Shown here: one piece after another, positions 3,195 through 20,471 of the stretch
Layout of the letters: every line of letters starts with the position of its first letter
How positions within the stretch are numbered: the first letter of the stretch is position 1
Source of the DNA: Clostridia bacterium
Lineage (GTDB): Bacteria > Bacillota > Clostridia > Christensenellales > UBA1242
Assembly (NCBI GenBank): GCA_017623705.1
Contig: JAGAOQ010000014.1
Coordinates: 383 to 64,382 of the forward strand
Direction: 5' to 3'
DNA length: 64,000 nucleotides
Position numbers and translations under genes: made by a program
Notes under the pieces: model-generated
The model's input: the letters and a program-made list of their open reading frames with translations, nothing else
The model's database searches: none
What the model was told of the DNA's origin: nothing

Positions 3195-4460
3195 ATGTTA
3201 TTGTACATCGACCCAGGCACTGGCAGTATGCTTTTCACAATACTGATCGGTCTTTTCGGTTCATTGTTTTATTCAATGAAAATATTTTTAATTAAATTAA
3301 AAGGTTGGATTGGCGGTGGCAAGGTTGAAAAAATCAACAGAAAAATTCCTTTTGCGATTTATTCCGATGATAAAAGATATTGGGCAATTTTTGAATCAAT
3401 CTGCGAAAAATTAGACAAACTCGATAAAGAAGTTTTGTACCTAGCTGCTTCCGAAGATGATCCAGTGTTTAAGAAAAAATTTAAGAACATTAAAGCCGAA
3501 TACATCGGTAAAAGCAACAAATCGTTTTTCCGCTTGAATTACCTAAATGCGTCCATTTTGCTATCGACCACTCCTGGCTTTGGTGTATATCAATGGAAGC
3601 GATCCAAGAACGTTGATTACTATGTTCACATTACGCACGCAGCCAGCGACATTGCGATGTACCGTATGTTTGGGATTGATTACTACGATGCAATTTTATT
3701 GTCCGGTCAATATCAAGTTGAAGACGTACGGGCTCTCGAATCATTAAGGAATTTACCCGCCAAAGAATTAGTAAAAGTGGGTATCCCTTACATGGACGAT
3801 ATGTTAAAACGGGTCAAAACAGCCAAGCCGATTGCCAAGCACAAAACAACCGTTCTGTTAGCACCATCTTGGGGACCGAGTGCCATATTCAGTGTCTATG
3901 GTGGCACGATAATTAAAGAGTTATTAAAGACGGGTTATCACATCATTGTTCGTCCACACCCACAATCATTTTCAGCAGAAAAAGATTTAATGGAAAAACT
4001 TATGAACGAATACCCTGCGAGTGAAGATTTGGAATGGAATCGTGATAATGATAACTTTGAAGTTTTGAGAAGATCCGACGTTTTAATTTCGGATTTTTCG
4101 GGTGTGATTTTTGACTTCGCTTTAATTTTTGAGAAGCCAGTAATTTATACTAATCCTAACTTTGATACCAGCCCTTATGACATGTGGTGGCTAAACAAAG
4201 CCCCGTGGACGTCTTCTGCCCTACCTAGAATTGGTCGAGAGTTAACTACGGAGAATTTCTCCAAGATTAAAGACCTCGTCAAAGACTGCGTAAAAGATAA
4301 AAAATTATCCAAAAGTTTAGTTGAAGTTAAACAAGAAGTTTGGGAGCATATTGGTGAAGGTGCGGAACGAACCGTCAAATACTTAACCGATAAACTTGAA
4401 GAGATTACAGCGAAAAAGAACGCACAAAAAAACAAAAAAGCAAAAGAAAAGGAAACTTAA
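3195..4460 (+). CDS. CDP-glycerol glycerophosphotransferase family protein (TagB/TagF-like) with N-terminal membrane anchor
   Basis: C-terminal motifs VRPHPQ and SDVLISDFSGVIFDFALIFEKPVIY are typical of the TagF family. SD taggagg precedes the ATG. Confidence 0.8.
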   Translation: MLLYIDPGTGSMLFTILIGLFGSLFYSMKIFLIKLKGWIGGGKVEKINRKIPFAIYSDDKRYWAIFESICEKLDKLDKEVLYLAASEDDPVFKKKFKNIKAEYIGKSNKSFFRLNYLNASILLSTTPGFGVYQWKRSKNVDYYVHITHAASDIAMYRMFGIDYYDAILLSGQYQVEDVRALESLRNLPAKELVKVGIPYMDDMLKRVKTAKPIAKHKTTVLLAPSWGPSAIFSVYGGTIIKELLKTGYHIIVRPHPQSFSAEKDLMEKLMNEYPASEDLEWNRDNDNFEVLRRSDVLISDFSGVIFDFALIFEKPVIYTNPNFDTSPYDMWWLNKAPWTSSALPRIGRELTTENFSKIKDLVKDCVKDKKLSKSLVEVKQEVWEHIGEGAERTVKYLTDKLEEITAKKNAQKNKKAKEKET

Positions 4461-4520
4461 AATTTTATTACACTGCCACAAGAATAATGAAAATAATTTA
4501 GATTAACTAAGGAGAAGAAA

Positions 4521-7367
4521 ATGTCATTTGCAAATATTATTGATTCAATATTTCTCGGGCCACTCAAACTGGTCTTTGAGCTGATTTTCAATCTGTCGTA
4601 CATCGTATCAGAAAACGTTTGGGTGTCGATTATTCTGTTAAGCTTAGCGATGAATTTTTTGGTCCTGCCACTTTATATGTCAGCAGACCGCATGCAAGAC
4701 AGAGCCAAGGAAATTGAAGCAAAACTTAGACCAGGGATTCAACACATCAAGAAGACCTTTAAGGGCGACGAAAGAATGATGATGTTACAAACATACTATC
4801 GACAAAACAACTACTCGCCTTTATCTGCTTTAAGCGGTTCAGTTTCACTGTTGCTGGAAATTCCCTTCTTTATGGCAGCGTACCAATTCTTATCTAATGT
4901 TGGTTACTTAAACGGTGCTTCCATGGGGATTATCAGCGACTTATCCAAGCCAGACGCCTTATTCAGGATTGGCTCATTCCAAGTTAATATCTTGCCATTT
5001 TTGATGACAATTATCAATATCATTGCGAGCGTTTTATACTTGAAAGGTGCACCATTAAAAGCAAAAATTCAACTTTACGCAATGGCAATTTTCTTCCTAG
5101 TATTCTTGTACACTTCGCCGTCAGGTTTAGTTTTCTACTGGACATTAAACAATGTTTTCTCCTTGATTAAAACAATTTTCTACAAATTAAAGAATCCGAA
5201 AAAAGTCTTAAAGATTACCTTTTCCGTTGTTGGTGGCTTATTGTTCTTAATCCCGATATTTGGCAACATTACAGAACTTGCGTTCATTGTCAGCATTGTA
5301 GCGGCTTGTTTATTGCAATTACCTTTAATCATTTATCTACTTAAAGAAAAAGTATTTAGCAAATTAAAAACAAACAACAAACCAAAATATCAACCCAAAG
5401 TTAAGACGCCAAACAGAAAGTTGTTCTTACTCGGTTGTGTCTTCGCAACGCTTTTACTCGGGGTACTAATTCCATCAAATTACATTGCAGCTTCGCCACA
5501 GGAGTACGTTAACGCCTTCTTGGACTTCAACCCTTTAATCTACGTACTATCTTCAACCTGCTTTGCTGCTGGCGTTTTCTTGGTTTGGTTACAAGTCTTC
5601 TACTGGTTGGCTGGGGAAAAAGGCAAAGTCAAATTTGACCGTGTGATTTGGGTTTTATCATTTATTATGCTCATCAATTACATGTGCTTTGGGACAAATC
5701 TTGGTGTCATCTCCTCTGCCCTGAAATACGATAATGGTTTTTCGTTTAGCGTCTTTGAATGCGTCTTGAACACGCTACTGGTCATCATCTTATCAGTTGC
5801 TTTGTACTTCATCGTGGCGAACCTAAAAGTCTTTACAAAGTATGCAATCTTATCAATCATTCTAGTTGCCGTTGTGATGAGTGGTATCAATTTTGTTGGC
5901 ATCAATAAATCGCTAGCAGAATTAAATAAAGCCGACAGTGGCACTGAAATCGAAACTCGTTTCTCTTTAAGCAAGAACAGCAAAAACGTAATCGTTTTAA
6001 TGCTTGACCGAGCGATGGGGGTTTATGTTCCATACATATTACAAGAAAGACCCGAGCTACGAGAAAAGTTAGCAGGATTCACATATTATTCGAATACGAT
6101 TTCATACGGTGGACATACGAACATGGCGTCGCCGGCCTTATTAGGCGGTTACGAGTATACACCAATTAAAATTAACCAAATGAGCAATAAATCACTCAAA
6201 GACAAACAGAACGAGGCACACTTAGTCATGCCAACCATTTTTGAAACAAATGGCTTTGACGTTACCGTTGCTGATACCGTTTACGCAAATTACAACCAAG
6301 GCACTGACTTGTCAATTTTTGATAAAGAACAAAACACGATGCTACAAAACATCGAAAATTATGACTCTATCAATGGAATTGCCCTCAAAGGTAAATTTAC
6401 CGACCAAGAACATATCAAATACCGTTATGCCGCTAACAAAAAGAACTTCTTCCGTTTTAGCTTAATGAAGTCTATGCCCTTGTTACTACAACTGCTACTT
6501 TACGACGGAGCAAAATACCATAATATTTCTGGCGGCGATGAAAGTTTATATGGCGGACAAAAAATTGAATCTATATCAAAAGCAAATGGCTATGACCCTG
6601 CATTCTTGGATAACTATCTTGCACTGGATAACTTGCCAGAAATTACCAAAGTAACAGACTCTAACACAAACACATTTATGTTCATGACAAATGACCTTAC
6701 ACACGAACCAATGCTTTTAGATGAAACCACCTATACCCCAGCGATAAACGTTGACAACACCGAATATGACAAAACTCACGCAGATCGATTCATTAACCAA
6801 ACAACAGGTGATAAGTTAAAAATTAACACCGCAACAGCACTAAAACACTACCAAACTAATGTTGCGACTTTGTTTAAGCTTGCTGAATGGTTTGATTACA
6901 TGCGAAAAAATGACGTATATGATAACACAAAAATTATTTTGGTTTCAGACCATGGTAGCAACAGTGGCGGAAATTTAGATATTTTTAACTATAACAATGA
7001 ATCGTTAGAATTCTATTTTCCACTTTTGATGGTAAAAGATTTTGCCGAAAACCTATCGAGTGATGAAAAGACAACTGTAACCTTTGATAATCAATTTATG
7101 ACAAATGCTGATGTTGTGTCGCTTGCCGTAAAAGACGCTATTGACGGCGAAGTTAAAAATCCATTCACGGGAAAAGCCATTAACACAAACGAGAAAACAG
7201 CACACGATCAATTCATTATGTGTTCTCGCAAACACAGCATTTCAGAAAACAACAAGAACCAATTTCTTGCCTCTGAATGGATTGCAGTCGGTCAAAGTGG
7301 TTTATGGGATACCAGCAAATTAAAATACATCGCAACACCTGTGGTTAAAACAGATTACAATATCTAA
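4521..7367 (+). CDS. fusion protein: YidC/Oxa1-like insertase domain + polytopic membrane region + extracytoplasmic sulfatase/alkaline-phosphatase (LtaS-like) domain
   Basis: N-terminal LPLYMSADRMQ..YYRQNNYSPL..SGLVFYWTLNNVFSLIKT matches the YidC core. About 8 further TM segments follow, then a C-terminal VIVLMLDRAMG..LVSDHGS sulfatase-type domain. SD aaggag. Confidence 0.75.
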   Translation: MSFANIIDSIFLGPLKLVFELIFNLSYIVSENVWVSIILLSLAMNFLVLPLYMSADRMQDRAKEIEAKLRPGIQHIKKTFKGDERMMMLQTYYRQNNYSPLSALSGSVSLLLEIPFFMAAYQFLSNVGYLNGASMGIISDLSKPDALFRIGSFQVNILPFLMTIINIIASVLYLKGAPLKAKIQLYAMAIFFLVFLYTSPSGLVFYWTLNNVFSLIKTIFYKLKNPKKVLKITFSVVGGLLFLIPIFGNITELAFIVSIVAACLLQLPLIIYLLKEKVFSKLKTNNKPKYQPKVKTPNRKLFLLGCVFATLLLGVLIPSNYIAASPQEYVNAFLDFNPLIYVLSSTCFAAGVFLVWLQVFYWLAGEKGKVKFDRVIWVLSFIMLINYMCFGTNLGVISSALKYDNGFSFSVFECVLNTLLVIILSVALYFIVANLKVFTKYAILSIILVAVVMSGINFVGINKSLAELNKADSGTEIETRFSLSKNSKNVIVLMLDRAMGVYVPYILQERPELREKLAGFTYYSNTISYGGHTNMASPALLGGYEYTPIKINQMSNKSLKDKQNEAHLVMPTIFETNGFDVTVADTVYANYNQGTDLSIFDKEQNTMLQNIENYDSINGIALKGKFTDQEHIKYRYAANKKNFFRFSLMKSMPLLLQLLLYDGAKYHNISGGDESLYGGQKIESISKANGYDPAFLDNYLALDNLPEITKVTDSNTNTFMFMTNDLTHEPMLLDETTYTPAINVDNTEYDKTHADRFINQTTGDKLKINTATALKHYQTNVATLFKLAEWFDYMRKNDVYDNTKIILVSDHGSNSGGNLDIFNYNNESLEFYFPLLMVKDFAENLSSDEKTTVTFDNQFMTNADVVSLAVKDAIDGEVKNPFTGKAINTNEKTAHDQFIMCSRKHSISENNKNQFLASEWIAVGQSGLWDTSKLKYIATPVVKTDYNI

Positions 7368-7383
7368 AACAAAGGAGATCAAA

Positions 7384-8460
7384 ATGATAAATTTTACAGT
7401 AGGACCAGTACAATCAAACGAAGATGTCTTAAAAATTGGAGCACAACAAGTACCCTATTTTAGGACAGCGGAATTTTCCGCAATTATGTTGGAAAACGAA
7501 AAGTTGGTCAAAAAGTTTGCCAAAGCAAAAGACGATGCTCGTGTAGTTTTTATTACAGGTTCAGGTACAGCATCAATGGAAGCTGCAATCATGAATTTAT
7601 TTAATCAGCAAACTGACAAACTGTTGGTGATTAACGGTGGTAGCTTTGGACAAAGGTTTGTTGACATTTGCAAAATCCACGAACTGAATTACACCGAAAT
7701 TGCATTAAATTTAGGCGAAAATATTACGCCTGAAATTTTAGCACAGTATGATGGACAAGGTTACACTGGATTATTAGTCAACATTCATGAAACGTCAACT
7801 GGCGTACGTTACAATCTCGATGCAATCAGTGCTTTCTGCCAAAAGAATCACATCTTCTTACTGGTAGACGCCATCAGTTCTTTTTTAGCCGACGAAATTG
7901 ATATGGCTAACAGTCAAATTGGAGCGTTGATTACAGGTTCACAAAAAGCATTAGCATGCCCACCGGGAATATCTTTAATTGTTTTAGCAAAAGAAGGTTT
8001 AGACCGAATAAATTGTAACAAGATTAAATCTTTGTACTTTGACTTAAAACCCGCACTTAAAGACGGCGAAAGAGGTCAAACACCTTTTACGCCAGCCGTT
8101 AGCATTCTGCTACAAATCAATGCAAGATTAAAACAAATTAAACATGACGGCGGAATTGAGAAAGAAATCGCACGAGTTGCCCGTTTAGCAAATTATTTCC
8201 GTGAAAAAGTAAAAGCATTGCCTTTTGAATTAATTACCAACAGCATGTCAAATGCAGTTACTACCCTCTCTCCGAAAAACTGTTCTGCTTACGACATATT
8301 TTTAACACTGAAAAATGAATACAACATTTGGGTTTGTCCTAACGGCGGTAAATTAAAGGATCAACTTTTCCGTGTGGGACACATCGGCAATTTAACCGAA
8401 GCAGATTATGACAAACTGATTGATGCGATGAATGATATGGATAAGAGGGGGCTTTTGTAA
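7384..8460 (+). CDS. class V (PLP-dependent) aminotransferase
   Basis: FITGSGTASMEAA and SQKALACPPG (PLP lysine) motifs; 358 aa; SD aaaggag. Confidence 0.8.
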   Translation: MINFTVGPVQSNEDVLKIGAQQVPYFRTAEFSAIMLENEKLVKKFAKAKDDARVVFITGSGTASMEAAIMNLFNQQTDKLLVINGGSFGQRFVDICKIHELNYTEIALNLGENITPEILAQYDGQGYTGLLVNIHETSTGVRYNLDAISAFCQKNHIFLLVDAISSFLADEIDMANSQIGALITGSQKALACPPGISLIVLAKEGLDRINCNKIKSLYFDLKPALKDGERGQTPFTPAVSILLQINARLKQIKHDGGIEKEIARVARLANYFREKVKALPFELITNSMSNAVTTLSPKNCSAYDIFLTLKNEYNIWVCPNGGKLKDQLFRVGHIGNLTEADYDKLIDAMNDMDKRGLL

Positions 8461-8469
8461 GGACGGCTC

Positions 8470-9816
8470 ATGAAAAAAGTAATTACGTACGGAACTTTTG
8501 ATTTACTGCACCATGGTCATATCAAGATTCTTGAACGAGCAAAAGCGTTGGGTGATTATTTAATCGTTGGGGTAACTTCTGACGATTATGATAAATCACG
8601 AGGAAAAATCAACGTACAACAATCTTTAATCCAAAGAGTACTTGGTGTTAAAGCAACTGGGCTTGCCGATGAAATCATAGTGGAAGAATACGAAGGACAA
8701 AAAATTGATGACATTATTAAGCATGGCGTCGACATTTTTACGGTTGGTTCAGACTGGAAAGGCGTATTCGACTATTTGAACCAATATTGCAAAGTTGTTT
8801 ACCTAAAACGAACTGAGGGCGTTTCCAGCTCACAAATTAGAGAAGAAAACGCTAACTTGAAAATTGGTTTAATTGGCGAAACCAGATTTATGGAAAAGTA
8901 TTATAATGAATCTGCTTTCGTAAATGGACTTAAAGTCGAAACTGTTTACACACTTGACAAAAGCATTTACAACGACCAAAAGGAACTCTTATCTTTCAGT
9001 AACTCTTATGAAGAATTATTAACCAAGGTTGATGCTGTCTATATCGCATCACACCCTACCAAGCATTATCAACAAATTCTACAAGCACTGGAAAATGGGA
9101 AACATGTCCTATGCGAATCACCACTTACCATGTCGGTAAAAGAATCAAAGAAACTATTTGAAATTGCCAACAAGAAAGGATTGATTTTAATGGAGGCAAT
9201 CAAGACGGCCTACTCTACTGCCTATAACCGTTTATTACTACTCTTGAAAAGTGGGAAAATTGGCAAAGTTGTTTCGGTTGATGCAACTTGCACAAGTATC
9301 GAAAAAATTGTTAAAGACGATAAATTGGGTTACGAAAAAGTATGGAATTCAATTTGCTCATGGGGACCAACTGCCATGCTACCCGTTTTACAAGTTTTAG
9401 GAACTAACGTAAAAAATTTGGACATTTCGTCTATTAAGTTGCCTGATGATGCAACGTTTGATATTTTTACAAAAATCAATTTTACATTCAAAGATGCAGT
9501 TGCTTCCATCAAAGTTGGAAAAGGTGTAAAATCCGAAGGTGAACTGATTATCTCTGGGACCAAAGGTTACATCTACGTTCCATCACCATGGTGGAAAACT
9601 GATTACTTTGAAGTTCGCTATGAAGACTTCAATAACAACATCAGGTATTTTAACCAACTAGACGGCGAAGGCATACGCTCGCAATTACTGGCGTTTGTAC
9701 GAGCAATTAAGCACAGCAATCCAAAGACCTATATCGACCAACAAGTTTCGATTGAAATCAGCAAAATCATTGAAACCTACAACAACGGCATGATAACCAA
9801 TTTGAACGCAAAATAA
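8470..9816 (+). CDS. fusion: glycerol-3-phosphate cytidylyltransferase (TagD-like) + Gfo/Idh/MocA oxidoreductase
   Basis: N-terminus is MKKVITYGTFDLLHHGHIKILERAK (HxGH nucleotidyltransferase). The C-terminal 310 aa carry GKHVLCESPL, a Gfo/Idh/MocA signature. Confidence 0.8.
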   Translation: MKKVITYGTFDLLHHGHIKILERAKALGDYLIVGVTSDDYDKSRGKINVQQSLIQRVLGVKATGLADEIIVEEYEGQKIDDIIKHGVDIFTVGSDWKGVFDYLNQYCKVVYLKRTEGVSSSQIREENANLKIGLIGETRFMEKYYNESAFVNGLKVETVYTLDKSIYNDQKELLSFSNSYEELLTKVDAVYIASHPTKHYQQILQALENGKHVLCESPLTMSVKESKKLFEIANKKGLILMEAIKTAYSTAYNRLLLLLKSGKIGKVVSVDATCTSIEKIVKDDKLGYEKVWNSICSWGPTAMLPVLQVLGTNVKNLDISSIKLPDDATFDIFTKINFTFKDAVASIKVGKGVKSEGELIISGTKGYIYVPSPWWKTDYFEVRYEDFNNNIRYFNQLDGEGIRSQLLAFVRAIKHSNPKTYIDQQVSIEISKIIETYNNGMITNLNAK

Positions 9817-9864
9817 AACCTAAACCGACCAGTTCGATTTAGGTAAAAAAATCAATCTTGTTAT
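9817..9864. repeat. direct repeat copy A (terminator hairpin + 20 bp)
   Basis: aacctaaaccgaccagttcgatttaggtaaaaaaatcaatcttgttat is identical to 11006-11054 except for one extra A. The hairpin part recurs at 13681-13708. Confidence 0.9.
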
Positions 9865-9870
9865 ATACAC

Positions 9871-10326
9871 CTAATTACTTTGATATTTATTTATATATTC
9901 ACTAAATTCTAGTAACCGATTCAGTGCATTTCTGCGGGTTCCATGTCCATAATCTCCTAAATCTTTTTTTATTCCATTTAGAGAATATTCTTCACAATAT
10001 CTTTCAATGTTTTTTAACAACACATCAAAACAAATGTTTTCAATTTCACAGATTCTATCAACTGCGTTTACATATTCAAACGAAGTGCTTTTTGCTTCAC
10101 TTTTAGTACTAATTCCATATCCCCTTAACGCTAAATAAATTAAAAAACCATTTCTATTTATTTCAAATTTTTGTTGATATTTGGTAAAAATTTCATAATT
10201 ACTTAATTTATCGTTCCTACTTTTACAATCATTATTTTTTGTTTTGTTGTTCATGCATGATAAACATTTTTCATCATTATCATTTAATATATAGTTAAGT
10301 TCGCAAATTGGACATTTTCTTACCAT
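9871..10326 (-). CDS. zinc-ribbon protein, unknown function
   Basis: 151 aa. N-terminal CPICELNY..CLSC ribbon. Very AT-rich; 60 bp sampled by hand gave about 23% GC. Confidence 0.6.
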   Translation of the reverse strand: MVRKCPICELNYILNDNDEKCLSCMNNKTKNNDCKSRNDKLSNYEIFTKYQQKFEINRNGFLIYLALRGYGISTKSEAKSTSFEYVNAVDRICEIENICFDVLLKNIERYCEEYSLNGIKKDLGDYGHGTRRNALNRLLEFSEYINKYQSN

Positions 10327-10392
10327 TTGTATTATAGCTCCTTGTATGAGTGTAATTTTTTTTTTACTTTTCTAAATTATATCATAATTAAA

Positions 10393-10959
10393 TTATTCTT
10401 TATCATTTTGCGGTCTTAAAAGTTCAATTGTGTTAATGAATTTATAAACTAAATCACTATCTTCTGTTTCAATGTAAAACGATGGAATTCGTATATCGTC
10501 AATTTTCAAAATCAAATGATGCGACATTTTCTTTTTTATACTTTGTTTTTGGTTTGTTATCATAGAACCAGCAATTGCTCCCACTGAACCAAACAAAATT
10601 CCACCAGCTAGCATTGGGATGCTACCATTTTTGTTTTCATAAACAATATTGTTGTCCGTAACGACTTGAACACTTAATAATTTATTTATAACAAAAGGAC
10701 CAAAATTACAAATTTCGCTATTTAAGTTATCAACTTTATCAACTTCAATAGCAAATTTTTTATCTTTACTATTTATAAGAAACAACACATCACCGTTGGT
10801 TTTTGTTTCACCTAAAAGCATACTTATGTCAGGACATAAATTATATTCAGCCACCGACATTTCTTTTCCGCAAAAAATACTTTTACATAAAAGAATGTTG
10901 TCTTGCGTATTTAATAACATTTGTTTTCCACATTTAGGACAAATGTATTTACTTTCCAT
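10393..10959 (-). CDS. zinc-ribbon protein with central glycine-zipper hydrophobic segment, unknown function
   Basis: 188 aa. CPKCGKQ..CKSIFCGKE ribbon and MLAGGILFGSVGAIAGSMI segment. SD ggagat upstream. Confidence 0.6.
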   Translation of the reverse strand: MESKYICPKCGKQMLLNTQDNILLCKSIFCGKEMSVAEYNLCPDISMLLGETKTNGDVLFLINSKDKKFAIEVDKVDNLNSEICNFGPFVINKLLSVQVVTDNNIVYENKNGSIPMLAGGILFGSVGAIAGSMITNQKQSIKKKMSHHLILKIDDIRIPSFYIETEDSDLVYKFINTIELLRPQNDKE

Positions 10960-11005
10960 AGTTAAATCTCCTATTCAAATAGTAACTTATTTTTACAAAA
11001 AAAAC

Positions 11006-11054
11006 AACCTAAACCGACCAGTTCGATTTAGGTAAAAAAAATCAATCTTGTTAT
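11006..11054. repeat. direct repeat copy B
   Basis: Same 48-49 bp sequence as 9817-9864. Its 3' end supplies the -35 of the promoter for the 11085 gene. Confidence 0.9.
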
Positions 11055-11076
11055 TGAACATAACATGCAGTATACT
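11048..11076 (+). promoter_or_regulatory. sigma-A-type promoter, leaderless configuration
   Basis: TTGTTA-N17-TATACT, then 8 nt to the ATG at 11085. No SD. Confidence 0.5.
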
Positions 11077-11084
11077 ATCTAGAT

Positions 11085-12218
11085 ATGAAATTGACGGATT
11101 TATTAGTACCTAGAAAAACCAAAGGCAAAGAAGATGATTTAGTATTTTTATATACTAATCAAGAGTTGAAAGATAAATACAAAATAACAGAATTTAATAT
11201 TGAAAATAGAAGTACGGAAGAAAGAAAAGGTCATAAATTTTGGTTACGTAATGAAAATTTTAGACCTATGCCCCATAATCCCGAGCTAGAAATTGCGGAA
11301 GGTTGTATCGATGAAGAAACCAATCTTCAAAGATTGATTATACATAATAAAAAAACAAATAAATATTTTTTTAATAACAAAGAAGCTGAATCACTTGATG
11401 AATTTTTTACGGAAAACAATTATGGAATTCGTCCTGGTTTAAGTTTTGATATTGATGCATATACCAAAATCAAGCAACAACTAGAAGCTAAGAATGACTT
11501 CACTCACAGTCCATATTTATTTCGTGAAAAATATATGTTGCTAAATTTTGGAGAATATCCAGATTATAACAATGAAGTAGTTCTTGCTAGTGACAAGTAT
11601 AGAGATTCACGATTTACACAGTTCCCACAAGCAACAGGCAAAGAATATTACCACCAATCTAGTTGTACCCTGTTTAATGGTGAGAAAGAAATATATCGTA
11701 ATCGAGAATATTTAATCAAAGGAAAGAAATATGTACATCTCTTTGCAAGTGTTTTTATCCCAGTAACAAAAATTTCTTTTATGATTTTGAATTGGAATGA
11801 TTTACCAAAATCAATCAATCCACAAGGTACTGGAACCGCAAAGACAATTGACTTAATAGCTACAAGAACTTTAAATGAACTACCCTATCAATTTCATCGA
11901 AACAATGTTAAAACTGAAAACAATTGGCTACATAGTTCAATACGTGCTTTCTTAAATGGTAATGCTAACACGAAAGGACAGTTTATCGAAGACTTCCGTA
12001 CTAATAATTTCATCAATCAAGCATTTGAAAATGAAATTACCTTATTAAAGGAAATTGAATTTACCAAAGAACAAACTCAAAAACAAAAAAAATTCAAGCT
12101 AATCATTAAACCTAGTAATTGCGGAATTAAAAATTTATTACCACGGCTAAATAGTAATACTACACAAATCTCAAAAAATCATACTCAATCAACAGACATT
12201 TATGAACGCAATCAGTAG
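11085..12218 (+). CDS. hypothetical protein (377 aa), AT-rich island gene
   Basis: Long intact ORF. Motifs KFWLRN and NWLHSSIRAFLNG are faintly reminiscent of secreted DUF-type domains. No confident family assignment. Confidence 0.55.
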   Translation: MKLTDLLVPRKTKGKEDDLVFLYTNQELKDKYKITEFNIENRSTEERKGHKFWLRNENFRPMPHNPELEIAEGCIDEETNLQRLIIHNKKTNKYFFNNKEAESLDEFFTENNYGIRPGLSFDIDAYTKIKQQLEAKNDFTHSPYLFREKYMLLNFGEYPDYNNEVVLASDKYRDSRFTQFPQATGKEYYHQSSCTLFNGEKEIYRNREYLIKGKKYVHLFASVFIPVTKISFMILNWNDLPKSINPQGTGTAKTIDLIATRTLNELPYQFHRNNVKTENNWLHSSIRAFLNGNANTKGQFIEDFRTNNFINQAFENEITLLKEIEFTKEQTQKQKKFKLIIKPSNCGIKNLLPRLNSNTTQISKNHTQSTDIYERNQ

Positions 12219-12254
12219 AAAAGATTTTCACAAGCATCTAAAATTTGTAATGTA

Positions 12255-12719
12255 TTAGATACTATTTTTATATAATTCATTGGCATTGAAAATTTGAATG
12301 CAAGTTTTGACTTCGTCAGTAATATTTGGATTTGATAATGCTTCTGATGTGGTTTGCCATTTATAAGCATCGTGTTCAGTTAAAATAACTTTTGAGCAAT
12401 CATCTGGAATAATTACAAAGTTAAATTGACGTGTTTTCTTCCCACTCCCCGATAAGTAATCAAAGTAGTCAAGATAACTTTCAATATACGCAATATTCAT
12501 ACCTGTTTCTTCTTTAATTTCACGTGCCATACCTTCTGGTATCGTTTCAGTGTTTTCCAAATGCCCACTTGGAAGTTCGTCTATACCACCTAAGAAATCA
12601 TTTGGTTTTCTAGTAACAACTAAAATTTTTCGTTTATCGTTTAACACAATACCACCGACAACTATTTTCTGTATTCCATCTTTCTTTGCTTTGTCCAAAA
12701 GAAAGTTATAAAAGTTCAT
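12255..12719 (-). CDS. Nudix hydrolase
   Basis: Complete Nudix box GHLENTETIPEGMAREIKEETGM (Gx5Ex7REUxEExGU). Confidence 0.85.
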   Translation of the reverse strand: MNFYNFLLDKAKKDGIQKIVVGGIVLNDKRKILVVTRKPNDFLGGIDELPSGHLENTETIPEGMAREIKEETGMNIAYIESYLDYFDYLSGSGKKTRQFNFVIIPDDCSKVILTEHDAYKWQTTSEALSNPNITDEVKTCIQIFNANELYKNSI

Positions 12720-12724
12720 GATTA

Positions 12725-12753
12725 ATTTTACGGTAAATATTGACTTTTGCCAA
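12725..12753 (-). promoter_or_regulatory. sigma-A-type promoter, leaderless configuration (Nudix gene)
   Basis: TTGGCA-N17-TAAAAT, then 5 nt to the ATG at 12719. Confidence 0.5.
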
Positions 12754-13029
12754 GAAAATATATACCTCTAAATTTATTGTACTATCATATAAATTTTTAT
12801 GTGGTGCCAAACAGATTCTATAAAAAACAAAAACTACCGCAAAGTAATCTCGGGCGTACAAAATATGATTCAACAAACTGTCATAGTTCGTATTGTTTAC
12901 TCTTGGCGTGACGCAGGTAATGTGATTTGTCACTGTGTTTAATCTCGCTGATACGTAAACCTTGATATCTGTAATACATAATTTTTCTACTTTTATTGTC
13001 CTTTGTAAATCAAAATTATTTCGCAAGTT

Positions 13030-16428: not shown

Positions 16429-17691
16429 TTACGGTTTTAAGCGAGTTGGACCACGGAAGATAAAGCAACTTTCTTTAACGGTTGGTAAATCCAAAAGACG
16501 TGCCATTAAACGTGCTAAACCGATAGCAAAGCCACCGTGTGATGGTGCACCATAGCGGAAAAATTCCAAATACTCTTGCATGTGGTCGGGGTTAATGCCT
16601 TTATCAACAATGTTTTGTTTTAATTGTTCGTAACGATGTTCACGTTGTGCCCCGCTGGTTATTTCAACACCTTTATAGAGCAAATCAAATGAACGGTCGC
16701 CCATAGTATAGAATGCACGTGCATCGTGCGGATAATCGGTAATAAAGACAAAATCCGAACCAAACTTTTCTTTGACATATTCGCTAATTAAACGCTCGCC
16801 ATCGGGGTCAATATCACCTTGTGCGGCTTTTGGCATTTCGTAGTGTTTTTCTTCACGTAAGATTTGATAAACTTCCTGTAAAGTTAAACGGGGAAATTTT
16901 ACTGTCGGCACAGTGATTAAATCGCCAAATTGAGCATGCAATTTTGTTAGCACATCGGTTAATAAATTTTCTTCAATATCCATTACGTCATGATGACTTT
17001 CAATATGAGAAATTTCAACGTCCAACGCCGTAAACTCGGTTGCATGACGGGAAGTAAAACTACTTTCCGCACGGTAACATTCACCAATTTCAAAAGTACG
17101 GTCAAAGCCCGCCATCATGCTCATTTGTTTGTAAAGTTGTGGACTTTGCGTTAAATAAGCGGGTGAGCCAAAGTAATTTTTAATTTCAAAAACTTCACTA
17201 CCACCCTCACTGGATATTGCACTAATCTTGGGCGTATGAATATTGATAAAACCATGCTCAACTAACCAATCCACCATGTAACGTTCTAAGGCAGTTTGCA
17301 CCTTAAAAATTTGTGCTTTTGCTGGATCACGTAAATCTAACCAACGATAATCTAAACGTAAGTCTAAACCACTTTCTTTATCAATCGGTAAAACCGCCGC
17401 TGCCACACTATCGACTACGACTGTTTCGGGAATAATCTCAACACCACCTAATTTTACATAGTCATTTTTTACAGCTGTACCTGTAATGGTTAACACGCTT
17501 TCAACAGTAACGCCATCAATAATTTTAGCAACTTCGGGTAATTTAGCTTTTTCAACTGTTATTTGAATTTTGCCCGTAATATCACGTAAAACAATAAACT
17601 GCATAGCACTTTTGTTACGCAAGTTTTCCACAAAACCAGAAATTTTTACTTTGCAATCTGGCTTAACATTTTGAATTAAAGTTCTTTCCAT
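16429..17691 (-). CDS. aspS: aspartate--tRNA ligase, archaeal/type-2 short form
   Basis: N-terminal OB fold; class II motifs YRAESSFTSRHATEF and GGFAIGLARL; 420 aa; SD aaggag. Confidence 0.75.
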   Translation of the reverse strand: MERTLIQNVKPDCKVKISGFVENLRNKSAMQFIVLRDITGKIQITVEKAKLPEVAKIIDGVTVESVLTITGTAVKNDYVKLGGVEIIPETVVVDSVAAAVLPIDKESGLDLRLDYRWLDLRDPAKAQIFKVQTALERYMVDWLVEHGFINIHTPKISAISSEGGSEVFEIKNYFGSPAYLTQSPQLYKQMSMMAGFDRTFEIGECYRAESSFTSRHATEFTALDVEISHIESHHDVMDIEENLLTDVLTKLHAQFGDLITVPTVKFPRLTLQEVYQILREEKHYEMPKAAQGDIDPDGERLISEYVKEKFGSDFVFITDYPHDARAFYTMGDRSFDLLYKGVEITSGAQREHRYEQLKQNIVDKGINPDHMQEYLEFFRYGAPSHGGFAIGLARLMARLLDLPTVKESCFIFRGPTRLKP

Positions 17692-17705
17692 TTGTTATTT
17701 ACTCC

Positions 17706-19067
17706 TTAACGTAATTCGCCAACGGCACGAGGGTGTAATTGTGTGTCACGAATATTTGTAATACCAGTTAAATACATCAGCATACGCTCAAAACCTAAAC
17801 CAAAGCCACTGTGCGGTACAGAACCATACTTACGTAAATCTAAATAATTGTGATAATTATCAACCTTCATGGAACGAGCTTGCATAGCGGCAACCAGCTT
17901 GTCATAGTCAGCTTCACGTTCACTACCGCCGATAATTTCACCAACCCCTGGAATCAACAAATCTGTCGCTGCCACGGTTTTTCCATCTTCATTTTGCTTC
18001 ATGTAAAAAGCCTTAACATCACGTGGATAATTAACAACGAAGACTGGTTTCTTGAAGTATTCATCAGTTAAATAACGTTCATGTTCAGTTTGTAAATCAA
18101 CACCCCAGCTTACTGGATACTTAAATTCCTTACCCGATTTTTGTAAAATTTCGATTGCTTCGGTATAGTCGACTTCGGCAAAAGCGTTGTCCGCCACTTC
18201 TTGTAATTTTGCAACTAAACCCTTTTCGTAGAAATTATCAAAGAAAGCCATTTCATCAGGACAAGTTGCCAAAACTTCACGAATAATTGATTTAATCATA
18301 TCACGAGCGACATCAATAATGCCGTCGAGTTTAGTAAACGCAGCTTCGGCTTCCACCATCCAGAACTCAGCAACGTGGCGTGTTGTGTTAGAATTTTCCG
18401 CACGGAATGTTGGGCCGAAGGTATAAACACGTCCCAAAGCCATGGCAACTTCTTCGGCTTCTAATTGCCCCGAAACAGTTAAACTTGCGGGTGCCCCAAA
18501 GAAATCACCTTGGTAATCAGGAGCAACCACTTGGAATGATTCACCTGCCCCTTCCGCATCGCCACCTGTAATCAACGGCGTATGCACGTAGAAGTAACCA
18601 CGTTCTTGAAAGAAATGATGAATTGCCATGGATAAAGCATTACGCACACGCATCATTGCCATAAACGTATTCGTACGGATACGTAAGTGCGGAATCGTAC
18701 GTAAAAAATCTAAACTGGTTTTTTTCTTTTGAATTGGATAATCCGCAGCACAATCGCCAATAATGGTAATTTTTTCTGCATTGATTTCTGCATCATTTAC
18801 ATTATGATAAGCCGAAACCACCACACCACTCACAATAACAGCAACGCCCAAGTGCATGACATGATTCAACGTATCTTGACTAATCTTAGCATTTTCTTCT
18901 TTTTGAATTACGATTTGCAATGGCTTAAAACTGCTACCATCATTAAGTTCTAAAAAAGACGTAGTTTTGGATTCACGGAAATTTTTAACCCAACCTGCAA
19001 CTTGCACTGTCTTACCAATGTAATAATCTTTCTTGTCTTTTAAGTTTTGAATTGTAATCTCTATCAT
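17706..19067 (-). CDS. asnS: asparagine--tRNA ligase
   Basis: TFGPTFRAENSNTTRHVAEFWMVEAE and GFGLGFERM are AsnRS signatures. Confidence 0.9.
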   Translation of the reverse strand: MIEITIQNLKDKKDYYIGKTVQVAGWVKNFRESKTTSFLELNDGSSFKPLQIVIQKEENAKISQDTLNHVMHLGVAVIVSGVVVSAYHNVNDAEINAEKITIIGDCAADYPIQKKKTSLDFLRTIPHLRIRTNTFMAMMRVRNALSMAIHHFFQERGYFYVHTPLITGGDAEGAGESFQVVAPDYQGDFFGAPASLTVSGQLEAEEVAMALGRVYTFGPTFRAENSNTTRHVAEFWMVEAEAAFTKLDGIIDVARDMIKSIIREVLATCPDEMAFFDNFYEKGLVAKLQEVADNAFAEVDYTEAIEILQKSGKEFKYPVSWGVDLQTEHERYLTDEYFKKPVFVVNYPRDVKAFYMKQNEDGKTVAATDLLIPGVGEIIGGSEREADYDKLVAAMQARSMKVDNYHNYLDLRKYGSVPHSGFGLGFERMLMYLTGITNIRDTQLHPRAVGELR

Positions 19068-19795: not shown

Positions 19796-19958
19796 AATCG
19801 TACATATATATATTCCCATTTAATAATTATGTCAACAACTATTCATGAGTTAATGTATAAAAATGTATAATGACTCTGCTTGCCTTCTTCGTCTTTATTC
19901 GACAAAATTATATTTATTACGTCGTAAATCGACAGAAAAAATGGGGGAAGATAATTTC

Positions 19959-20471
19959 ATGAACGAAATCAATGGTTTTACAAAAGTCGAATCAGCAATA
20001 GCAATGCTATCACGTGAAGATTTACAAAAAGTGCTACTGACAATGGTGCAATCACCAGAATTGCAATCGTCAGCAGTTCTTAACGAATTCTTTAAGAATT
20101 CTAATTCCGACGAAGGACATTCACTCGATAGACAAATCTCGAAAATTTTTGTGTCAATCGGTATCCCGCCACACATTAAGGGTTATCAATATTTGCGGAC
20201 AGCAATTAAAACTTGCGTCAAGGACACAAGTATTATTTCATCAATCACCAAACGCCTCTACCCTGACGTAGCGAAAGAATACGATTCAACGCCAAGCAAA
20301 GTTGAACGTGCAATTCGCCATGCGATTGAGGTTTGCTGGAACCGTGGCAAAATTGACAGCATTAACAACATTTTCGGCAGTCAAGTTTTCACCAAAAACG
20401 ACCGACCAACTAACGGCGAATTCATCGCCTTGTTAGCCGATAAATTATTACTCGATGATTGTCATGAATAA
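19959..20471 (+). CDS. stand-alone Spo0A C-terminal (DNA-binding) domain protein, no receiver domain
   Basis: IGIPPHIKGYQYLRTAIK..ITKRLYPDVAKEY..SKVERAIRHAIEVCWNRG..PTNGEFIALLADKL is near-identical in pattern to the Spo0A effector domain. Start chosen at the ATG at 19959 behind GGGGGAAG. Confidence 0.8.
   Translation: MNEINGFTKVESAIAMLSREDLQKVLLTMVQSPELQSSAVLNEFFKNSNSDEGHSLDRQISKIFVSIGIPPHIKGYQYLRTAIKTCVKDTSIISSITKRLYPDVAKEYDSTPSKVERAIRHAIEVCWNRGKIDSINNIFGSQVFTKNDRPTNGEFIALLADKLLLDDCHE

Follow-up and report, generated by a model that had tools for sequence, protein, structure and literature searches.

A four-gene Clostridia operon that may make and transfer an activated amino-alcohol, with a cytidylyltransferase fused to a dehydrogenase fold lacking the canonical redox residues

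Which phospho-alcohol is activated by a teichoic-acid-like operon whose cytidylyltransferase is fused to an oxidoreductase fold and encoded beside an aminotransferase? The question is raised by four genes at positions 3195-9816 of a stretch of 64,000 nucleotides (nt), hereafter the window, from a Clostridia bacterium (contig JAGAOQ010000014.1 of assembly GCA_017623705.1). An earlier note had proposed that the TagD-type enzyme makes cytidine diphosphate (CDP)-glycerol, that the fused NAD(P) oxidoreductase oxidizes it at C2 and that the aminotransferase aminates the resulting ketone, giving CDP-2-aminoglycerol (CDP-serinol). That product was still the best guess after the analysis and is plausible, whereas the proposed route was poorly supported. 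In the explanation that best fits the whole, which is held with even confidence, the operon joins a donor module leading from dihydroxyacetone phosphate (DHAP) through serinol phosphate to CDP-serinol with a module for transfer to the envelope.

The operon was composed of four co-directional open reading frames (ORFs) on the + strand. Domain calls were made by Pfam and NCBIfam profile searches with curated cut-offs. The genes and their domains are given below, with protein lengths in amino acids (aa).

3195-4460, + strand: gene 1, 421 aa, TagF-like.
4521-7367, + strand: gene 2, 948 aa, membrane protein with YidC, polytopic and alkaline-phosphatase-fold parts.
4521-5195, + strand: YidC/Oxa1-like domain, aa 1-225 of gene 2 (PF02096, TIGR03592).
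5196-5927, + strand: polytopic linker, aa 226-469 of gene 2, with about seven hydrophobic segments in a hydropathy scan.
5928-7367, + strand: extracytoplasmic alkaline-phosphatase-superfamily domain of the LtaS/EptA type, aa 470-948 of gene 2, from motifs and conserved residues.
7384-8460, + strand: gene 3, 358 aa, class V (AGXT/PhnW-like) aminotransferase dependent on pyridoxal 5'-phosphate (PLP), PF00266.
8470-9816, + strand: gene 4, 448 aa, TagD-like cytidylyltransferase fused to a Gfo/Idh/MocA fold.
8470-8847, + strand: TagD-like cytidylyltransferase domain, aa 1-126 of gene 4 (PF01467, residues 5-125).
8857-9816, + strand: Gfo/Idh/MocA-fold domain without canonical redox residues, aa 130-448 of gene 4 (PF01408, 68 bits, residues 131-242).

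The gaps between consecutive genes were 60, 16 and 9 nt, and the ribosome-binding sites of genes 1-4 were TAGGAGG, AAGGAG, AAAGGAG and AAGGA, the last being weaker. The four-gene layout and domain content described in the earlier note were borne out, since the ORF calls placed the genes at the same coordinates, the Pfam and NCBIfam matches agreed, and each ORF had a recognizable ribosome-binding site. Gene content, residue states and conserved gene pairings were observed in this and related genomes.

The cytidylyltransferase half of gene 4 aligned end to end with Bacillus subtilis TagD (PDB 1COZ) with E 3e-39; the value for Staphylococcus aureus TagD was 2e-35. The nucleotide-binding motifs of TagD were present as HHGH (14) and RTEGVSSS (114), and the basic phosphate ligands R44/K46 occupied the positions of TagD Lys44/Lys46. 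The near-canonical alignment and the retained motifs indicate that the substrate is probably a three-carbon phospho-alcohol of the size of glycerol-3-phosphate. The TIGR01518 score (116.5 bits) did not reach the equivalog cut-off of 165.4. Two substitutions relative to TagD, W74 to E75 and GDDW to GSDW, were invariant across the fusion family. The host was a small Clostridia-type metagenome-assembled genome (MAG) of gut origin with 0.64 Mb assembled and an estimated completeness of 74%, and gene 4 was the sole TagD-like sequence found in this assembly.

The second half of gene 4 belonged to the Gfo/Idh/MocA fold, and its residue states were distinct from those of the canonical family. G-E-T-R-F-M was present in place of GxGxxG/A, CESP in place of EKP, and WNSICSWGPT in place of GGx..D/E..Y/H. 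The motif survey covered 22 aligned fusions and then 80 further orthologues, which had a median identity of 52% to the gene 4 protein. The glycine-rich loop of the fusion family read G-[ED]-[STA]-x-x-[LVIM]. In 79 of the 80 orthologues the EKP lysine had given way to Ser, Ala or Thr, none of the 80 kept Lys there, and the catalytic GG..[DE]..[YH] stretch was replaced by a conserved W-N-S-x-x-x-W-G-P-T, so that the redox signature was lost in every one of them. The degenerate glycine loop by itself was dropped as proof of inactivity, as a similar loop is known from active members of the family.

All three redox features were retained in a sister group of fusions, found in G037, G304, G400, G378 and G142. 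The G037 homologue (L012, 9710-11053) was 48% identical and kept IIGTGRIAHRF, CEKP and GG..E..Y; it was located between queA and a ZIP transporter gene, with no aminotransferase. The class-wide sample consisted of 399 evenly drawn genomes of the host's class, nine of which had a fusion homologue, counting the host genome. In this sample an aminotransferase was adjacent to none of the five canonical-motif fusions, as against four of the five degenerate ones. The canonical-motif subfamily (loci L012, L113, L114, L115 and L116) is probably an active reductase-cytidylyltransferase, and such fusions resemble the TarJ-TarI pair of ribitol activation in coupling a reductase with a cytidylyltransferase. 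In G142 and G378 the canonical fusion was followed by a 330-aa paralogue consisting of the dehydrogenase fold only, with degenerate motifs. Two observations, that the lysine and the catalytic pair are lost together and that canonical motifs are inversely correlated with an adjacent aminotransferase, point to a domain that appears to have lost its canonical redox function while retaining another role.

These results bear directly on the order of steps in the earlier note, in which the oxidoreductase would convert CDP-glycerol to CDP-dihydroxyacetone before amination; the product would be the same CDP-2-aminoglycerol. The domain fusion, the tight coupling with an aminotransferase and the strong conservation of the dehydrogenase fold fit such a route, and a G-x-[ST] nucleotide-binding loop is not unheard of in active family members. 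However, the lysine and the catalytic acid/Tyr were missing throughout the orthologues, and the relatives that do keep the canonical motifs were those lacking aminotransferases, which is the opposite of what oxidation followed by amination predicts. Moreover, the partner aminotransferases were HisC-like or AGXT/PhnW-like and not of the DegT type that acts on sugar nucleotides. The oxidation of CDP-glycerol by the fused domain is hence considered improbable. Of the NAD(P) oxidoreductase assigned in the earlier note, the fold stood and the catalytic signature (EKP lysine, acid/Tyr motif and glycine loop) did not.

The fusion was widely distributed. A protein search gave more than 8000 full-length relatives, the best 120 of which were listed at about 59-99% identity, and a species-level scan with one genome per species gave at least 593 confirmed fusion loci. 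The neighbourhoods of the best 80 species-representative loci were surveyed by calling ORFs and typing the neighbours by BLAST against the proteins from this study. These 80 loci, at 54-64% identity, came from Clostridia, Bacteroidales (Segatella copri, Bacteroides intestinalis, Prevotella and Muribaculaceae), Coriobacteriia, Negativicutes, Treponema, Akkermansia, Elusimicrobia, Synergistetes and a Methanobrevibacter MAG. Such identity across phyla indicates wide horizontal spread of the fusion. The pair of aminotransferase and fusion was itself seen at 55-60% identity in the Methanobrevibacter MAG (L053), an Akkermansia MAG (L105), an Elusimicrobiaceae locus (L050) and a Treponema locus (L074). 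The occurrence of the pair in lineages this distant, an archaeal MAG included, implies that horizontal transfer among organisms of the gut and rumen has been extensive, with binning errors possible. Among 40 close relatives of the host, only two genomes had the fusion, one from the host's genus and one from its order, and no class V aminotransferase or YidC fusion was found.

An aminotransferase gene was located within 1.5 kb of the fusion in 72 of the 80 loci, almost always directly upstream. Three of the remaining eight had one within 3.4 kb, and two were cut by contig ends. The coupling of the two genes, for which the earlier note had suggested a survey across genomes, was thus upheld in several phyla. 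The partner was a class V enzyme in 47 of the 72 loci, a HisC-like enzyme in 23 and both in 2. Other neighbours were LicD-family genes (45 of the 80 loci), TagF-like genes (5) and GNAT N-acetyltransferase genes (6), the last being adjacent in Ruminococcus albus 7, a Eubacterium MAG and others; their presence near some loci fits an amine product. A search of a plasmid collection gave one useful cultured case, plasmid pRUMAL01 of R. albus 7, and otherwise plain TagD genes only. In pRUMAL01, the order LicD, class V aminotransferase, fusion, LicD, GNAT, LicD was found within a Wzy-type capsule locus.

The exchange of one aminotransferase class for the other could be followed between close orthologues of the cassette. 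The metagenomic contig L024 was syntenic with the window, both running from NrdD and a histidine phosphatase through the cassette to DegV, two class II tRNA synthetases and Spo0A_C. The two differed in that the YidC fusion and the cytidylyltransferase fusion of L024 had no class V gene between them, and a HisC-like gene was present just downstream, convergent and on the opposite strand. No HisC remnant was found in the window when it was compared with L024. That orthologous cassettes fill one slot with two non-homologous PLP classes argues strongly for transamination as an integral part of the pathway. The identities between L024 and the window were 88% for the TagF-like protein, 80% for the YidC fusion and 84% for the cytidylyltransferase fusion, as compared with 68% for the flanking histidine phosphatase and 76% for DegV. 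The greater likeness of the cassette (80-88%) than of its flanks (68-76%) suggests stronger constraint or more recent exchange.

The residue states and nearest relatives of the aminotransferases were then informative for the substrate. Gene 3 matched PF00266 with 77.8 bits, and the PLP lysine (K188, in GSQK) and the aspartate facing the pyridine nitrogen (D162, in LLVD) were both present. Its top NCBIfam matches were PhnW-AepZ and BhcA, all below cut-off, with 160 bits on the PhnW/AepZ equivalog TIGR03301 (cut-off 360.8), and its structural match was an uncharacterized aminotransferase (PDB 3F0H; E 3e-135). The alternative partner in other loci was a class I/II HisC-like enzyme of about 352 aa, which scored 228-248 bits, 246 in one instance, on the hisC model TIGR01141, just under the cut-off of 276.6, and had histidinol-phosphate aminotransferases as its nearest structures. 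Families of these two kinds act on small phosphorylated or phosphonylated compounds, such as histidinol phosphate, threonine phosphate, aminoethylphosphonate and phosphoserine, and DegT-type aminotransferases act on nucleotide-linked keto substrates. Since the partners belong to the former and not to the latter, amination most likely precedes cytidylylation and starts from DHAP. The natural substrate of HisC, imidazole-acetol phosphate, is a 2-oxo-3-phosphooxypropyl ketone, of which DHAP is the hydroxymethyl analogue. Gene 3 is accordingly best described as a predicted DHAP-to-serinol-phosphate transaminase.

Enzymatic precedent makes this step plausible, as Cj1437 of Campylobacter jejuni transaminates DHAP to (S)-serinol phosphate (PMC11800397). 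The C. jejuni HS:2 capsule pathway is alike in that a glycolytic ketone is the immediate precursor of serinol phosphate destined for a surface glycan (PMC11800397), the likeness being one of reaction. The two systems differ in that an ATP-dependent ligase joins the HS:2 serinol phosphate through an amide to glucuronate, after which the phosphate is removed, with no CDP activation and no phosphodiester. The literature search gave no mention of "CDP-serinol" and no report linking serinol to teichoic acids.

The aminotransferase matches also raise a different head group, in which the amine, from aminotransferase or PLP decarboxylase activity, would end in cytidine monophosphate (CMP)-2-aminoethylphosphonate, CDP-ethanolamine, or CDP-activated phosphoserine or aminopropanol phosphate. 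PhnW-AepZ was the top NCBIfam match of the class V enzyme, the CobD threonine-phosphate decarboxylase is a near relative of HisC-like enzymes, and ethanolamine-phosphate cytidylyltransferase is a relative of TagD. Furthermore, the PntC-AEPT fusion of Treponema denticola (Tde1415, PDB 6PD1) couples a class V aminotransferase with a cytidylyltransferase. Together with LicC/LicD it follows the same logic as the operon, in which a small phospho- or phosphono-amine from an aminotransferase is charged by a cytidylyltransferase and then passed on by a LicD- or TagF-type enzyme; LicD was also the usual neighbour of the fusion. On the other hand, gene 3 was only distantly related to the class V part of PntC-AEPT (E 1.4e-15), the nucleotidyltransferase of which has the LicC/GlmU fold and not the TagD fold, and its PhnW-AepZ score was less than half of the cut-off. 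The substrate of PntC-AEPT is a phosphonate that requires phosphoenolpyruvate (PEP) mutase. No PEP mutase was found in the host assembly or in four of five isolate genomes with the fusion, although one of the four, Anaerovibrio (L101), had no adjacent aminotransferase. Aminoethylphosphonate was largely rejected as the product on these searches. The cytidylyltransferase was also far nearer to TagD than to the ethanolamine-phosphate enzyme (E 3e-39 versus 1e-15), and a decarboxylase role would need two different PLP folds to share one function. Another phospho- or phosphono-amine head group is therefore rather unlikely.

An ordinary glycerol-phosphate system was weighed on the same evidence. In such a system the fusion would make CDP-glycerol or, like the pneumococcal Gtp1-3/WchX pathway, CDP-2-glycerol, and the aminotransferase would be unrelated or accessory. 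The cytidylyltransferase half was very TagD-like and the only one in the assembly, which agrees with this explanation. The nearest described cassette of similar shape was the pneumococcal wchX-gtp1-gtp2-gtp3 of serotypes 15 and 23, in which a TagF-like transferase and a three-function donor cassette (reductase, nucleotidyltransferase and a third enzyme) lead to a three-carbon phospho-alcohol side group, glycerol phosphate (PMC1391919, PMC5581491). This comparison was made on published annotation. The pneumococcal product, glycerol 2-phosphate, contains no amine, and Gtp1-3 are annotated as 'glycerol-2-phosphate dehydrogenase', 'nucleotidyl transferase' and 'phosphotransferase', with no aminotransferase named (PMC3493582). 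The near-obligate aminotransferase partner, the in-place class swap and the occasional GNAT would be left unexplained by a plain glycerol system, and the TIGR01518 score was below the equivalog cut-off. Hence, this explanation is regarded as highly improbable.

The operon was also compared with TagD/TagF itself. The B. subtilis enzymes (TagD PDB 1COZ/1N1D) and Cps3D (PDB 8QOY) are like the operon in combining an HxGH/RTxGxS cytidylyltransferase for a three-carbon phospho-alcohol with a GT-B transferase of the TagF family for which the CDP compound is the donor. Unlike TagD, the cytidylyltransferase of the operon is fused to a degenerate dehydrogenase fold and falls below the TagD equivalog cut-off, and the aminotransferase is a near-obligate partner of the fusion. 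The assembly gave no sign of a TagO, TagA, TagB, TagGH or LCP context, and the TagF-like protein is short (421 aa) and coupled to a YidC-fused ectoenzyme.

The transfer part of the operon was formed by genes 1 and 2. The gene 1 protein matched PF04464 (Glyphos_transf) with 50.9 bits (cut-off 22.1) over residues 179-324, corresponding to profile positions 147-297 of 367 only. All three TagF-family motifs (APxW, xPHP and SDxSxxxFD) were present, as APSW (223), RPHP (253) and SDFSGVIFDF (299), and a single N-terminal hydrophobic helix was located at about residues 10-34 by a hydropathy scan. The match to the TagF-like polymerase Cps3D (PDB 8QOY) was weak, and the NCBIfam equivalog models of TarF and TarL scored far below cut-off. 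Gene 1 is predicted to encode a phosphotransferase that moves a CDP-activated phospho-alcohol at the cytoplasmic face.

The N-terminal part of gene 2 scored above cut-off on both YidC models (PF02096, 87.9 bits; TIGR03592, 90.8 bits against a cut-off of 84.3). The groove position in its first transmembrane segment was Asn44, which is not positively charged, and Asn was the family consensus. The YidC-like domain of gene 2 reads LSLAMNFLVLPL, and the aligned stretch of the genome's separate YidC on contig 6 reads FTLFIKLMLSPL, with Lys at the position aligned to Asn44. That stand-alone YidC (contig 6, 56060-56983; L028) had Lys rather than Arg in the groove and a long hydrophilic insertion of about 150 aa relative to the fused domain. 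The ectodomain of gene 2 scored 21 bits on PF00884, below the cut-off of 25, and gave weak matches to PDB 2VQR at the motifs NVIVLMLDRA and ILVSDHG. D496, T533, H728, D810 and H811 were invariant in 29 family members with 35-49% identity. By motif position, D496/T533/H728/D810-H811 would correspond to the metal ligands and the Thr nucleophile of LtaS/EptA-type enzymes. The ectodomain looks active, and is predicted to be a phospho-group transferase. Gene 2 is thus similar to LtaS, GacH and EptA, which likewise join a polytopic anchor to an outward-facing alkaline-phosphatase-fold domain with a Thr nucleophile and Asp/His ligands. It differs from them in the extra N-terminal YidC fold without the groove arginine or lysine, in the score below the PF00884 cut-off and in its constant coupling to a TagF-like gene, which suggests a donor other than bulk phospholipid.

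The architecture of gene 2 was that of a large family, with 1350 cluster representatives matched at E < 1e-30 over the full length, mostly of 850-950 aa. A TagF-like gene of 405-439 aa adjoined the YidC fusion in all three distant homologues whose contigs were inspected. The donor genes beside the pair were different in each: none in one, an IspD-like cytidylyltransferase with a racemase and a methyltransferase in another, and an NTP_transferase gene in the third. The pair was found with an aminotransferase and the cytidylyltransferase fusion in L024 and in a Galactobacillus MAG (L099), in which the order was aminotransferase, fusion, TagF-like gene, YidC fusion. The conservation of the pair beside differing donor genes suggests that genes 1 and 2 form a donor-independent transfer pair. 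No glycosyltransferase, flippase, ABC exporter, primer or ligase gene was found at the locus, and searches of the assembly gave no DltD, no LCP ligase and no second TagF-like gene. A separate, true LtaS-like gene was present on contig 7 (PF00884, 85 bits). The pair hints at export and attachment of phospho-alcohols without TagGH, Wzx or LicD.

According to these results, the following mechanism is proposed for the operon. The class V aminotransferase would convert DHAP to serinol phosphate (2-amino-2-deoxyglycerol phosphate), and the TagD-like domain of gene 4 would combine it with cytidine triphosphate to give CDP-serinol. The fused Gfo/Idh/MocA-fold domain would perform no redox chemistry and may be a conserved relic of an ancestral reductase-cytidylyltransferase, with a probable role in binding or assembly. 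In that ancestor, the reductase half may have made the substrate of the cytidylyltransferase by reducing the same ketone to glycerol phosphate, and the aminotransferase may later have taken over the supply of substrate. The membrane-anchored TagF-like enzyme would then transfer serinol phosphate from the CDP donor to a lipid-linked acceptor at the inner face, as single units or as a short chain. The YidC-fold and polytopic parts of gene 2 would carry the lipid-linked intermediate across the membrane, where the LtaS/EptA-like ectodomain would hand the phospho-amino-alcohol to the final envelope acceptor, which may be lipoteichoic acid from the separate LtaS-like enzyme. The envelope would thereby gain a free amine linked through a phosphodiester, which is a zwitterionic motif.

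Several points weigh against the CDP-serinol explanation. Family membership and gene context are the grounds on which substrate, product, step order and acceptor are proposed, and the roles of genes 1 and 2 are read from adjacency and residue conservation only. E75 was ruled out as a marker of amine specificity, because the canonical-motif fusions carry it too. The dehydrogenase-fold half had 64 positions at least 95% conserved in the 80 orthologues, and such conservation across phyla means that, as judged from the alignments, the domain does something. Active family members without the second glycine of the loop are known, such as 1,5-anhydro-D-fructose reductase and KijD10, and biliverdin reductase A has EYP instead of EKP, so that non-canonical redox activity is possible. 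At 74% completeness, the absences reported for the genome are weak evidence.

The surroundings of the operon were also examined. One further feature was located directly 3' of gene 4:

9818-9844, no strand assigned: hairpin, one copy of a repeat that recurs at about 11006.

This hairpin is the probable end of the operon. A promoter scan gave 34 promoter-like sites, as compared with 32 expected. The repeat copies were at 9817-9865 and 11006-11055, the second being about 1.19 kb downstream of the first, and they bracketed two minus-strand zinc-ribbon genes (151 and 188 aa; span 9871-10959). The G+C content was 26-30% over 10000-13000 and about 37% in the flanks. In L024, the same space held the HisC-like aminotransferase gene and a 231-aa gene in place of the zinc-ribbon genes. 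The repeats, the low G+C content and the different gene content in L024 indicate that the region 3' of gene 4 is a replacement hot spot.

On the other side of the cassette, a divergent gene of the histidine-phosphatase family (PF00300, with weak PspA and CobC-type matches) was found at 2070-2624 on the - strand. A gene of this family also adjoined the cassette divergently in L024 (4455-4997), and another was near the module in L026 (20293-20934). The phosphatase could be tied to phospho-alcohol metabolism, or the adjacency could be coincidental. Spo0A_C and DegV genes were present near the operon. A 202-aa protein (19863-20471, + strand) had the Spo0A C-terminal domain as its sole Pfam match, over residues 92-195, and two class II (Asp/Asn/Lys-type) tRNA synthetase genes were adjacent to each other at 16429-19067 on the - strand. 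The Spo0A_C protein and the paired synthetase genes are notable for a genome of roughly 0.9 Mb.

Four elements of this analysis are new, namely both modules combined in a single operon, the in-place swap of aminotransferase class, the correlation of canonical or degenerate motifs with aminotransferase adjacency, and the PEP mutase test. From the gene comparisons, the pathway appears to be widespread in gut microbes and to be a variant of the known logic of CDP-activated head groups (TagD/TagF, LicC/LicD and PntC-AEPT). A broader proposal, tentative and on balance doubtful, is that gut and rumen microbes (Clostridia, Segatella, Bacteroides, Coriobacteriia, Akkermansia, Treponema and the Methanobrevibacter MAG) share by horizontal transfer an undescribed CDP-serinol pathway, in which an aminotransferase replaced the reductase step and left a pseudo-dehydrogenase behind. 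The pathway would feed a second undescribed machine, made of the TagF-like enzyme and a YidC-fold/LtaS-like flippase-ectotransferase, and so give a zwitterionic teichoic-type polymer without D-alanylation.

Carriers such as R. albus 7, S. copri, B. intestinalis AF14-32, Hugonella massiliensis AT8 and Collinsella are in culture, so that these readings can be tested directly. The split between active and degenerate fusions would be a clear natural case of an enzyme domain retired after the rewiring of a pathway, and the CDP-serinol route, if true, would be a new nucleotide-alcohol chemistry. Zwitterionic surface glycans have strong immunomodulatory effects and affect resistance to cationic peptides. 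The operon would represent a genetic route to such glycans for many gut commensals, provided that its product is a free amine in phosphodiester linkage.

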